The notes under the pieces were generated by a model, which saw only the letters and a program-made list of their open reading frames with translations, made no database searches and was not told the DNA's origin. A stretch of DNA of 62,277 bases, counting the filler, from Diploschistes diacapsis (taxonomy: Eukaryota): assembly GCA_023645945.1 (NCBI GenBank). It is 7 parts of 7 records of this genome, joined end to end, with 100 filler letters (N's around TTAATTAATTAA, not from the genome) between each part and the next. Parts side by side here need not be neighbours in the genome. Positions count along the whole stretch, not along the records: positions 17,110 to 22,697 come from JALAIB010001518.1; 6 more parts are not named here. One strand, written 5' to 3'. A program made the position numbers and the translations under genes. Below, in pieces: positions 5,607 through 56,690 of this stretch; the stretch's first letter is position 1; every line of letters starts with the position of its first letter.

Positions 5607-5706
5607 NNNNNNNNNNNNNNNNNNNNNNNNNNNNNNNNNNNNNNNNNNNNTTAATTAATTAANNNNNNNNNNNNNNNNNNNNNNNNNNNNNNNNNNNNNN
5701 NNNNNN
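5607..5706. other. Artificial contig linker (N44-TTAATTAATTAA-N44)
   Basis: 100-bp N spacer with an all-frame stop 12-mer. Confidence 0.99.
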
Positions 5707-11309: not shown

Positions 11310-11409
11310 NNNNNNNNNNNNNNNNNNNNNNNNNNNNNNNNNNNNNNNNNNNNTTAATTAATTAANNNNNNNNNNNNNNNNNNNNNNNNNNNNNNNNNNN
11401 NNNNNNNNN
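11310..11409. other. Artificial contig linker
   Basis: N44-TTAATTAATTAA-N44. Confidence 0.99.
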
Positions 11410-17009: not shown

Positions 17010-17109
17010 NNNNNNNNNNNNNNNNNNNNNNNNNNNNNNNNNNNNNNNNNNNNTTAATTAATTAANNNNNNNNNNNNNNNNNNNNNNNNNNNNNNNNNNN
17101 NNNNNNNNN
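17010..17109. other. Artificial contig linker
   Basis: N44-TTAATTAATTAA-N44. Confidence 0.99.
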
Positions 17110-17539: not shown

Positions 17540-18682
17540 TCACCGTCCCATATTCATCGCCTGCGTAAGCGCCAAGCGCTTGCTATACGGGCTCAAGCTG
17601 CGCTCCTTCCTCTCCTGCTGCTGCTGCTGCTGCGGCATCATCCCCCTCTGCCTCTCAAACCCCCTGGGCCGTTCCCGCCGATCATCAACATCACCATCTC
17701 GCTCACGGCGCGATCTCCCACCCTCTGCATCCCGCCCGTATCCATCCCTCCTTCTCCCCCGCTCCCCACGCTCCCTGGACCTTGCCTTCCCCTTATCCCG
17801 CCCCCCATCACCATCACCGTTCTCACGCTCTCTAAACGGATTCCCATTCCTATTTCCATCCTCGGCTCCCTCTCTTGCACGCCCGTCCGCGCCGCGCGAC
17901 CCCAGCGTATACCGGTCCCGGGCTATGCGGCTGTGATCCATGCTGCTGGTCCGGCTGCGCGAGAACTGCGGCTTGAAGCCCCCCTCCACATCCCTGTCCC
18001 GGCCGCGGCGCGACGGACTGACCGACGAGTGGCGCCGGCGCGTGTTGCGGTCGGCGGGGCGGAAAGAGGAGTGTCGGCGCGGCGGGTGGGAGCTGGAGGT
18101 AGAGTAGGAATTGGTGGAGGAGGACATTGAGGGGCTGCGGCGACGCTTCCGGGGGTGGATGCTGAGCTTGCTGCGGCGCGGCGAGGGGGAGGAGTGTCCC
18201 GTGTGTGTGCGTCGCGGCGGGGATCGCTCGCGGGATAGGTTCGTGGATATGGTGGAGATGGAACTGGATGAGATGGACCGTGAACGGGGGTAGTCGGCTT
18301 CGAGGAGGCGCTGGCGGCCGCGCGAGGCGCTGAGGTTTGAGAGGTATTCGTCTGCGATACCTGTCCTGATTTGAAGTGGTTAGTTATGTTGTAGAAGAAG
18401 GGTTGCGGGTTTGTTGCTGCTTACTTTCGCATGAGGTCGTTGGGCGCATCGCTGGTTAGCTTGGGTACGAGTTTGGGATTGGCGAGCTGCTGGGTTCTCG
18501 AAGGTCTGGGAACGTAGGGTCTTTCCTGCACAGTTGCTTTGCATTCATAGCTGTAGTGTCGTGGGATGAGTCAGTATGCTGCCTGTGAGGTTGGGAGAGG
18601 CGTGGGACTTATCTCGCTGCAGGCACTTCTGGCATAGAGTTTGCAGGGAGGCCCTCGAGGGCGCAGGCCGGTTTCGGAGCAT
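17540..18682 (-). CDS. CCHC zinc-knuckle, Arg/Ser-rich protein (SREK1IP1/ZCCHC10-like); 3 exons, largely missed by the ORF track
   Basis: Exon 1 18682-18613 (MLRNRPAPSRASLQTLCQKCLQRG-); AT-AC intron 18612-18561; exon 2 18560-18425 (HYSYECKATVQERPYVPRPSRTQQLANPKL); GT-AG intron 18424-18366; exon 3 (TGIADEYL...) in frame with ORF 17540..18127, ending RSLSPYSKRLALTQAMNMGR*. Confidence 0.85.
18561..18612 (-). other. Non-canonical AT-AC intron (52 nt) with U2-type signals
   Basis: 5' ATAAGT, branch point TACTGAC (18576-18570), 3' CCCAC; removal restores the frame and C-x2-C-x4-H-x4-C. Confidence 0.8.
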
Positions 18683-19477: not shown

Positions 19478-21986
19478 ATGGCAGAAAGAAGTGCGGTAAC
19501 AAGCCCGACCGTCGGGGTGCAAAAACCCTCCTCGGCTAGTATATCGAGAATGTCTTTTGCAACAGTGAGTAGATTGTAAGTAGACAGCGTTCTTGAATAC
19601 TTACAAATATCAGGTCGCGGCTTTGCCTCCAAAACGCATCATCAATCAGAATGCGGGCAGTGCCTCAGGCAAAGCAGCCGCATCTCTTATATCCACATCT
19701 GACTCTGAGAAACTCGCATTGTCTTCTCCATCTGCTAAATCACATAGCGAGCAGGACTTAAGCCAGTCGCTCTCTAAACTGGACATGAAAAGCCAGCCTG
19801 ACCCCGCAAGCGACCCTGCTGAGCACGGCCCTCTTGAGGTCTTACGACAGAGGGCGAACCTAGAGGATGAAAAAACTCATCTGTCTGTCTCATCGACGAA
19901 GGCGCCAAGCCTAGACGGTAAGAGTATAGCTTCAATCACTACCTTCGCGATGGATGAGAAGGAGTCGATCCGACCGGACGATAGTGCAAGCGTCCAGGCG
20001 GCGGAAGACGAGGATTCCAACTCTGGTCCTGGTTCCGGTGCCCAGAACTCTCGCTTCGGCTCCGAGGCTGGGGCCAAAGCGTTCCACTCACAGCTGCAAG
20101 AAATCTCGCAGCAGAGGGGCATACCTCTGCCTAGAAAGATCGGTGACGCTGTGACTGCAGCACCGCTTGTCAACTGCCTCCAACAGCCTCTTACCATCAG
20201 CGCTAGCCCTCCCAACCTAGGCCCGCAAGGGGCACCGATGATTCCTCAGTATCAGTTTTGCGCGCCGGATCAGAAACTTTTGGAAGCTCTCGAGAGTGCG
20301 AAAGACAGGCTGTTTTTGCTTCAGCTGGAGCAACAGTTTATTGCGTTCATACAGGATCTGCAAGTGAATTCGCTGGATCTTCCGCCGTACAACTCCTTCT
20401 TTCGGCTGTTGGCGCACAGGCTTGGCGACTATTATAGGCTTTCGCACTGGGTTGACGGTAGCACGAATGCCGTGCGACTATACAAAACCAACGAAACTCA
20501 TTGCGCGCAACTTCCGACACCCCTGAGTGCTTTCAGCCGGAAGTCTTCATCCGATGACGCACCATCAGCAGCGCCGTCGATGAAAATAATGAGACGGGCA
20601 GGAGCAGCTCCATCGGAGACTGCAGCTACGCAATCCGGTGGAAATACGAATGTCAATTCCATGGCTCCTTCGAAGGCGGGCTCCGAGACTGGGGACGAAA
20701 GCCCAAAAGTCTCCGGTTTGGCTTCACCTGCAGAATCATCCACTGCAAAGGATAAGGCCACGCAAACAAGAGAAGAACGAGAGGCCAAGTATAAAGAAGC
20801 ACGCGAACGCATTTTTGGGGACTGGAAGGAAAGCGATAGTGGGGAGGCAAATCCAAGTAACGAGGCTTCAACTCAGGCTTCGAGGGCAAGCTCCGTTAAC
20901 GGGCGGAAGAAAAAGAAGAGCCACAAGAACAATGATGATGGCTTCGAAGTTCGCTCGGCGTACAACGTCTATTATCCCAATCGCCAAGGACCTGGCTTCG
21001 ATCAAATTGGAAGCCCAGTGGGTTATTATAATCCTTATATGCAGCAGAACGGTGCTCAAACGATGCAGCCGAATCTTGCTCCCACTTTTGAACAACAGTA
21101 TCCTCCCATGCAAACTACGCAGGTTTTCGCAGGACAAATGGTTGCCCAAGGCCAAATGCCTGCCAGTAACGGCATTTTAGTTCCTCCAGGAGCGCAACAG
21201 CAACTAATGGACACAATGGGCTATCAAGTGCAGCCACAGCCGATGATTAATCAATTTTATCCCCAAATGCAGCAGCCTCAGAACCAAATGCCGTTCCAGC
21301 CTCCGATGGTGCCTTCACCCAACTCTTACAATCCTCAGCTGTCCCGGCCTGTCTCGCAGATATCCGACCAAAGCTGGAGTCAGAGTAGTCTCCAAGGCCC
21401 TTACCGGCTGTGTTCTACAATACCGAACGGCTATCCACCGCAACAACCACCGAGCATGCAGCAGTTTACTATGAACAGCCCAAACAACATGCCAATGCCT
21501 TACCCTTATGGCCAACTGCCCTATCAACACCATGCCCCAGGCAATATGAACGCTCATCCCGTCCCTGGGAGCTACAATCGCCAAACCTTCAATGCACAGT
21601 CGCAAGTGTTTGTTCCGGGAGCTTCTGGATACCTTACTGCGGGGACTGACCATAGCAACAGGCAAAACAATAACATGACTTCACCGCAGGGGGGTTCCCA
21701 AGGTGGGATGAGTTTCAGCTACCCAATGCCTCAGATGCCGCAGAACCACCTCGTATCCCCTCTGGTAGCTTCGAGCTCCAGTTCGCCGCGCAAAGTCTCG
21801 AACCAGAGCTCACAGTCCCAATCACCAGGGGCATCTAGTACCATTTCAAAGTGGGGCACACCATCTACTTTACCACCAAAGCCGCCGCCACCTGCAAACC
21901 AGCTCATGCCCAGCAGTATGCCTACATTCCAGAATGGCACGTACTCTCAGCCCGTTGGTGCATCCGGGGATACCCTGACCCACTAA
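19478..21986 (+). CDS. R3H-SUZ domain RNA-binding protein with a Q/P-rich tail (Rbs1/R3HDM-like)
   Basis: Exon 1 19478-19564 (...RMSFAT); intron 19565-19613; TFAMDEKESIRPDDSASV; R3H NSFFRLLAHRLGDYYRLSH; SUZ MKIMRR...TREEREAKYKEARERIF; tail KWGTPSTLPPKPPP. Confidence 0.9.
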
Positions 21987-22697: not shown

Positions 22698-22797
22698 NNN
22701 NNNNNNNNNNNNNNNNNNNNNNNNNNNNNNNNNNNNNNNNNTTAATTAATTAANNNNNNNNNNNNNNNNNNNNNNNNNNNNNNNNNNNNNNNNNNNN
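22698..22797. other. Artificial contig linker
   Basis: N44-TTAATTAATTAA-N44. Confidence 0.99.
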
Positions 22798-28385: not shown

Positions 28386-28485
28386 NNNNNNNNNNNNNNN
28401 NNNNNNNNNNNNNNNNNNNNNNNNNNNNNTTAATTAATTAANNNNNNNNNNNNNNNNNNNNNNNNNNNNNNNNNNNNNNNNNNNN
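28386..28485. other. Artificial contig linker
   Basis: N44-TTAATTAATTAA-N44. Confidence 0.99.
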
Positions 28486-56590: not shown

Positions 56591-56690
56591 NNNNNNNNNN
56601 NNNNNNNNNNNNNNNNNNNNNNNNNNNNNNNNNNTTAATTAATTAANNNNNNNNNNNNNNNNNNNNNNNNNNNNNNNNNNNNNNNNNNNN
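56591..56690. other. Artificial contig linker
   Basis: N44-TTAATTAATTAA-N44, flanked by poly-G. Confidence 0.99.

Follow-up and report, generated by a model that had tools for sequence, protein, structure and literature searches.

In a stretch of 62,277 nucleotides (nt) of Diploschistes diacapsis DNA, which we call the window, a gene on the minus strand encodes an Arg/Ser-rich protein with a zinc knuckle of the Pfam family PF13917 (zf-CCHC_3), and the first intron of this gene splits the knuckle. We conclude that this intron, positions 18612-18561, is a genuine U2-type AT-AC ('AT-AC II') intron that is most likely a constitutive substrate of the major spliceosome, and we put the probability of this reading at about 0.88. 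The intron is not peculiar to one genome. It is an old feature across Pezizomycotina, a point missed by an earlier note on the same DNA, and the AT-AC state is common to the orthologues of at least five classes of this group.

All features of the gene are on the minus strand, and coordinates are positions in the whole window. The gene is laid out as follows.

18682-18680, minus strand: start codon ATG.
18613..18682, minus strand: exon 1, comprising ATG, 23 codons (MLRNRPAPSRASLQTLCQKCLQR), and the G that begins a Gly codon; it encodes the CxxC half of the knuckle.
18561..18612, minus strand: intron 1, 52 nt, phase 1, with AT-AC ends.
18612-18607, minus strand: donor of intron 1, ATAAGT.
18612-18611 and 18562-18561, minus strand: terminal dinucleotides of intron 1, AT and AC, as read in the sequence.
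Within intron 1, minus strand: branch-site-like word CTGAC, with 10 nt from its A to the intron end.
18563-18561, minus strand: 3' end of intron 1, CAC.
18425..18560, minus strand: exon 2, comprising GA, which completes the Gly codon, followed by HYSYECKATVQERPYVPRPSRTQQLANPKLVPKLTSDAPNDLMR and AA; it encodes the H-x4-C half of the knuckle.
18366..18424, minus strand: intron 2, 59 nt, an ordinary GT-AG intron (GTAAGC...CTAAC...CAG).
17540..18365, minus strand: exon 3, the Arg/Ser-rich tail with the C-terminal ...RSLSPYSKRLALTQAMNMGR and the stop.
17542-17540, minus strand: stop codon.

The letters of intron 1, from 18612 to 18561, are ATAAGTCCCACGCCTCTCCCAACCTCACAGGCAGCATACTGACTCATCCCAC, that is, the 5' hexamer and then the 3' part in ATAAGT...GCATACTGACTCATCCCAC. 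Exon 1 ends in ...TGC CAG AAG TGC CTG CAG CGA G, and exon 2 opens at 18560 with GA CAC TAC AGC TAT GAA TGC. A scripted join of 18682-18613, 18560-18425, and 18365-17540 gave 1032 nt, or 343 codons with a sole, terminal stop, and in the resulting protein CQKCLQRGHYSYEC begins at residue 17. Upon translation, the complete C-x2-C-x4-H-x4-C motif forms only once the 52 nt of intron 1 are removed, and with intron 1 of the window left in, the frame runs into a stop after 45 codons. The earlier note had claimed both that excision builds the knuckle in frame and that retention breaks the frame, and both claims stand. The spliced protein aligns over residues 1-343 with orthologues such as P0087, all three exons are intact and conserved up to the final residues (alignment A1 and scripted join), and the C-terminal segment agrees with the A1 consensus. 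Hence, the full-length alignment and the matching C-terminus indicate an intact gene that requires excision of exactly 52 nt.

The peptide encoded by exon 2 matches PF13917 with 43.1 bits (E 3.8e-11, profile positions 15-41 of 41), well within a family whose curated cut-off is 27 bits, and exon 1 matches positions 3-13 of the profile weakly (E 0.17). In translation, exon 2 also holds a conserved segment, RPSRTQQL, and a search with this peptide gave 613 relatives. No relative of alignment A1 was found in the PDB. Human ZCCHC10, a component of the spliceosomal C complex, is probably a PF13917-domain protein too, and the description 'probably splicing-related' in the earlier note would depend on this kinship.

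We scanned metagenome contigs with alignment A1, which returned 197 relatives, and compared the best 80 of these 197 at the DNA level. At the position of the Gly codon, 64 of the 80 loci carry an intron and 13 carry none; two loci are cut off upstream (L048 and L071) and one has no His motif (L054). The 64 introns occupy the identical phase-1 position in the Gly codon and have the ends AT...AC or AT...AA. Together, the orthologous metagenome loci and the window provided 40 distinct sequences of intron 1, with lengths of 46-59 nt. The first two bases are AT in all 40, the last two are AC in 37 and AA in three, and GT-AG ends are found in none (0/40). The two loci cut off upstream end in ...TACGC and ...CTACGC, in which GC represents the final two bases of the Gly codon, so these introns have AC ends too. 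The control, intron 2 of the same genes, begins with GT in 42 of 43 distinct sequences and with GC in one, and ends with AG in all 43; it is 48-146 nt long, with 8-18 nt from the branch A to the first exon base. The median pairwise identity was 0.483 for the interior of intron 1, close to the 0.480 of shuffled sequence, compared with 0.689 in exon 2. The odd ends thus stayed fixed while the interior of the intron was randomised, which excludes sequencing error and pseudogene decay. The earlier note had suggested looking for AT...AC at the same Gly position in orthologues, and it is found there; plain GT-AG orthologues or a pair of sequencing errors, which the note had named as findings that would speak against the intron, are contradicted by the lack of GT-AG ends and by the recurrence of the AC end.

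Apart from the terminal bases, the signals of intron 1 are those of a normal fungal intron: a G at exon position -1, a GTAAGT donor in which G1 has become A, a branch site CTGAC, and YAC in place of YAG. By eye, and compared with GTAAGT and GTATGT rather than with a weight matrix, the 5' splice site of the window, GAG/ATAAGT (the slash marks the splice boundary), fits the U2-type consensus except at +1. The donors of the 40 distinct introns are the usual fungal hexamers with A for G at +1 (ATATGT 13, ATAAGT 12, ATGAGT 5, ATAGGT 4, ATAGGA 2, ATACGT 2, ATAAGA 1, and ATATGA 1), with A or G at +3 and G at +5 in all of them and T at +6 in 36. A pyrimidine (C or T) precedes the terminal AC in 35 of 37 cases. 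The branch words are CTGAC (22), CTAAC (8), CTGAT (4), and CTGAG (4), with no pattern match in two introns, and the branch A lies 11-13 nt ahead of the first exon base in 36 of the 38 introns scored. The GT-AG control shows matching branch words and a matching branch distance. The description in the earlier note, a GTAAGT donor with G1>A, a U2-type branch point about 10 nt from the end, and a CAC acceptor, agrees with what is read in the sequence.

At the protein level, a search with the exon 2 peptide (44 residues) yielded the 613 relatives mentioned above, and the best 120 of the 613 were analysed. All named relatives among these 120 belong to Pezizomycotina, namely Leotiomycetes, Sordariomycetes, Eurotiomycetes, Dothideomycetes, and lichen-forming Lecanoromycetes, and all three protein searches gave named matches from Pezizomycotina only. 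The knuckle is intact in 57 of the 120 and broken in 63, and many of the broken ones are open reading frames (ORFs) or gene models that run into the intron. In the 63 broken proteins the residue preceding the His is Arg in 60, Ser in two, and Gly in one, and the residue two before the His always has some codon ending in A. Asp stands directly after C-x2-C-x3, corresponding to G/AT, in 31 of the 32 in-frame read-through ORFs among the 120; in the lone exception (P0022) the pattern matched another Cys pair. A library-wide search of representatives added 98 sequences, all with Pezizomycotina-like knuckle segments (HYSYEC type), 34 of which are intact, 57 broken (Arg 54, Ser 2, Gly 1), and seven otherwise mis-spliced. 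Among the 218 public proteins and ORFs overall, the exact spliced knuckle is present in 91 (57/120 plus 34/98), some from lineages without the intron, and 120 have the His motif without an in-register CxxC, the preceding residue being Arg in 114, Ser in four, and Gly in two. The Asp/Arg pattern in the broken proteins thus already implies AT...AC in many species.

These data also reveal how often the gene is mis-annotated. By hand count, 25 of 53 protein clusters with an NCBI source lack an intact knuckle. The public models P0266 and P0276 use a GT...AG pair that gives RD[I/N]YEC, and P0306 uses a third wrong pair. The warning in the earlier note that GT-AG gene finders would mis-model this gene is borne out by these clusters, and the pair used by P0266 and P0276 is the one it had predicted.

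Transcript evidence is available for Fusarium graminearum. The supplementary tables of an RNA sequencing (RNA-seq) study (PMC3577648, of which we used passages and tables) list two AT-AC introns. One is a 52-nt AT-AC intron of FGSG_10073, 738569-738620, which replaces the original model, 738572-738860. That study used Sanger sequencing to confirm seven genes that have non-canonical sites, of which FGSG_10073 may be one. The reverse primer given there for FGSG_10073, when reverse-complemented, translates to HGGRHQ, and among 236 collected proteins this peptide occurs only in P0137, the F. graminearum PF13917 protein, at residue 273. FGSG_10073 is most likely the orthologue and its 52-nt AT-AC intron orthologous to intron 1, and with FGSG_10073 as the orthologue, the AT-AC junction has been seen in the RNA of one species. 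In the passages and tables of PMC3577648 that we used, we found no comment on the gene family, the knuckle, the class of the intron, or its conservation. The second AT-AC intron in these tables, in FGSG_08743 (768429-768775, 347 nt), lies upstream of the coding region.

Intron 1 has a history of its own. The 13 loci without it are L003, L004, and L008, which keep intron 2, and L021, L032, L050, L067, L069, and L076-L080, which are without both introns. In our own reading of the comparisons, these loci form at least seven distinct sequence groups, and intron 1 was lost more than once. Since L003, L004, and L008 retain intron 2 and L021 is on an 80-kb contig, these loci look like cases of genomic intron loss and not like cDNA. 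The AT-AA ends occur in three distinct sequences (L060; L061 and L070; L072, L073, and L075), and in P0113, a close relative of the L061 type, the read-through ORF ends in ...SLG-H, a protein sequence that implies AT-AG. With A at +1, the last base of the intron appears to be freer than the first, and neither the 40 DNA sequences nor the 32 ORFs that read through in frame show a GT start of intron 1. Two further ORFs, P0372 ('MPSSG-H') and P0270 ('...SLTYQQTG-H'), resemble the Tuber melanosporum protein P0373 after the knuckle. Both have non-exon sequence upstream and Gly before His, which points to an AG-ending intron at the same spot. If P0372 and P0270 come from Pezizomycetes, the intron position may be older than the AT-AC state, and AT-AC would be an innovation of the ancestor of the five crown classes; this speaks against a U12-type origin. 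The Tuber-like case is built on these two ORFs and on the protein level.

Why the AT-AC ends persist could be explained as follows. Only precise excision within the phase-1 Gly codon yields the knuckle of this Arg/Ser-rich PF13917 protein, which is probably ZCCHC10-like. The A(+1)/C(-1) pair would replace the G(+1)/G(-1) contact needed in the second catalytic step, a mechanism suggested by earlier work on first and last intron bases because a first-base G-to-A change in yeast is rescued by a last-base G-to-C change, as summarised in the sections of PMC1557818 that we used. Epistasis would be the simplest reason for persistence: altering one end alone should impair splicing, and as A(+1)/G(-1) or G(+1)/C(-1) introns should be poor substrates, the pair would be locked in and reversion would be hard. 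The invariant G at +5, the YAC end, and the narrow range of branch distances look like compensation.

Several points weigh against a U2-type AT-AC intron that is maintained in this way. The AT-AA ends (3/40, at the DNA level) and the single AT-AG end (P0113, deduced from protein) weaken the epistatic lock, and should AT-AG be viable, GT-AG could be reached in one step; even so, no GT was observed in these sequences. The link to FGSG_10073 consists of a single match between primer and peptide together with the intron length, and the coordinates of the old model do not place the intron in the protein. An Arg before the His cannot fully tell AC from AA ends; it is expected from C/GN, but A/GA and A/GG also encode Arg. 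Among the fetched loci, intron-less contigs are never more than 88% identical to intron-bearing ones, so the metagenome loci give no pair of spliced and unspliced versions. For the window's own copy, splicing is inferred, and the absence of U11, U12, U4atac, and U6atac from this genome is taken from literature on the group (PMC2846911).

The earlier note proposed that the intron could be a rate-limiting or autoregulatory switch that senses splice-site fidelity. In such a regulatory reading, selection would keep A(+1)...C(-1) for making the second step slow or proofreading-dependent, and the output of a spliceosome-associated zinc-knuckle protein would follow the state of the spliceosome in an autoregulatory loop. 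We consider this unlikely. The invariance of A(+1) in all 40 sequences despite the AT-AA and AT-AG variants hints that a return to GT-AG was open and not taken, and the early stop upon retention in the window would suit such a loop. However, the intron has been lost outright in several lineages (13/80 loci), and an essential switch is unlikely to be dispensable. In many orthologues the intron has a length divisible by three and contains no stop, so that retention would have no uniform consequence, and the other signals are near consensus, which resembles compensation for efficiency and not tuning for inefficiency. The fungal protein is, moreover, a putative counterpart of human ZCCHC10. On the side of regulation, spectra of human ZCCHC10 were found only in the catalytic C complex of the spliceosome (in the part of PMC3923134 that we used). 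A related version would have A(+1) selected rather than trapped, with the second step as the bottleneck for a C-complex factor; the intron could then act as a feedback sensor of second-step capacity or fidelity in filamentous fungi, one that would date back to the ancestor shared by Sordariomycetes, Leotiomycetes, Eurotiomycetes, Dothideomycetes, and Lecanoromycetes. This version, too, we find unlikely.

It is improbable that the intron is removed by the minor spliceosome or goes back to an ancestral U12-type AT-AC intron, having moved to the major spliceosome upon loss of the minor one. The ends AT-AC, AT-AA, and AT-AG make up the set known for U12-type introns, and the narrow branch-to-3' distance of 11-13 nt would also fit. 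Phase 1 is compatible as well, as U12-type introns are biased against phase 0 (PMC7367187, in part). However, none of the 40 distinct introns starts with ATATCC or ATATCT, a U12-type /ATATCCTT donor with a TCCTTRAC branch 10-15 nt from the 3' end is absent (0/40 donors), and the invariant G at +5 fits U2-type sites. The word CCTTRAY occurs in one of the 40 introns, L074, as CCTTGAC in mid-intron and far from the 3' end. These counts agree with the statement in the earlier note that U12 signatures are lacking. Its view that Pezizomycotina have no minor spliceosome is found in the consulted part of PMC2846911, which reports U12 splicing to be missing in Ascomycota and Pezizomycotina. The Tuber-like ORFs P0372 and P0270, with their implied AG end, suggest that AT-AC arose later from an ordinary intron. 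A weak further argument is that ZCCHC10 is absent from supplementary Table S6 of PMC11347168 (minor-spliceosome-responsive introns), which lists ZCCHC8. More broadly, the consulted supplements of three papers (PMC11347168, PMC10639083, and PMC7367187) contain no mention of 'ZCCHC10', and our literature search found nothing that ties ZCCHC10 to minor introns. A search of the 62-kb window against Rfam gave no match of any kind, a result that does not extend to the remainder of the genome.

For each of the 40 distinct loci we enumerated all in-frame GT/GC...AG pairs around the site, and none of these pairs preserves CX2CX4HX4C in any locus (0/40). The in-frame alternative in the window combines GT at 18608-18607 (intron positions +5/+6) with AG at 18552-18551 (10 nt into exon 2) and gives RDNYEC. 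By hand count, a GT(+5)...AG(+10) pair at the same offsets is present in 30 of the 40 loci owing to the conserved donor bases +5 G and +6 T and to the Ser codon, which in most cases is AGY; its product, RD[N/I/S/D/T]YEC, loses the His. This in-frame pair and its adoption in the public models P0266 and P0276 would favour an artefact or a dead gene, with A and C as sequencing errors, the gene as a pseudogene, or the His-less product of GT 18608/AG 18551 as the true one, but we reject each of these as highly improbable: 37 of 40 independent sequences would have to share the identical two 'errors', the three exons are intact to their final residues, the alternative product destroys a His that is invariant in alignment A1, the alternative donor GTCCCA is a poor site, and no GT/GC-AG pair keeps the knuckle. 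Translational bypass of the 52 nt was also rejected, as the length varies between 46 and 59 nt and the interval bears ordinary splice signals.

The kind of element is known. In the sections of PMC1557818 that we used, U2-type AT-AC introns form the 'AT-AC II' class, with SCN4A and SCN5A named as proven cases; 24 were counted among about 610,000 introns of five species (0.003%), 15 of them in human, and the AT-AC borders of the SCN genes are conserved from human to pufferfish. For fungi, these sections go no further than the hypothesis that xylanase genes of filamentous species contain AT-AC II introns. Like the introns of human SCN4A and SCN5A, the knuckle intron combines AT...AC ends with an otherwise normal major-spliceosome 5' splice site, and it is rare and long-conserved. 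Unlike them, it is found in Pezizomycotina, which are reported to be without the minor spliceosome, so that no second machinery is available as a fallback; it is also short (46-59 nt), has its branch 11-13 nt from the 3' end, and splits a knuckle of 14 residues. Whereas SCN4A and SCN5A are proven cases, removal of the knuckle intron by the U2 small nuclear ribonucleoprotein (snRNP) machinery is predicted. With U12-type AT-AC introns it shares AT-AC ends with occasional AT-AA or AT-AG, a non-phase-0 position, and a short, constrained branch-to-3' distance, but it differs from them in lacking their donor and a properly placed TCCTTRAC and in occurring in a host group reported to be without U12 splicing. 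The FGSG_10073 intron (PMC3577648) resembles it in being 52 nt long and AT-AC, and was found by RNA-seq after a wrong model based on GT-AG. Fungal GC-AG introns are similar in that the major spliceosome tolerates an odd terminal base that is compensated by a closer donor consensus (PMC1557818); however, GC-AG involves one change and switches freely with GT-AG, whereas AT-AC needs two matched changes and no GT-AG was seen here. In our literature search, we found no paper describing a conserved AT-AC intron in this zinc-knuckle (PF13917) gene family; string matches to AT-AC in the part of PMC3091305 that we used turned out to be polyketide-synthase domain strings, not introns. Several points go beyond what we found in print: how deeply the intron is conserved in Pezizomycotina, its location within the knuckle, its variants with AA and AG ends, and the extent of the mis-annotation.

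Two other observations concern the surroundings of the gene. An 800-codon open frame on the plus strand (19584-21986), Gln/Pro-rich toward its end, lies about 0.9 kb upstream of the ATG of the gene, on the opposite strand. The window also contains six pairs of 44-nt N runs with 12 bases between the two runs of a pair, at 5607-5706, 11310-11409, 17010-17109, 22698-22797, 28386-28485, and 56591-56690. Pairs 1-5 are spaced by about 5.69-5.70 kb and look like masking, not biology; the pair at 17010-17109 is about 430 nt past the stop codon of the gene and does not overlap it.

Overall, a large share of the public records model this gene wrongly, and permitting AT-AC at this site would repair them. 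If the protein is truly the fungal ZCCHC10, an odd intron would lie in the gene of a protein of the catalytic spliceosome, which would suggest a control loop. An AT-AC intron fixed across a large group reported to be without the minor spliceosome offers a genetically tractable system in which one could ask how an A...C terminal pair is processed by the major spliceosome and what makes this pair persist.

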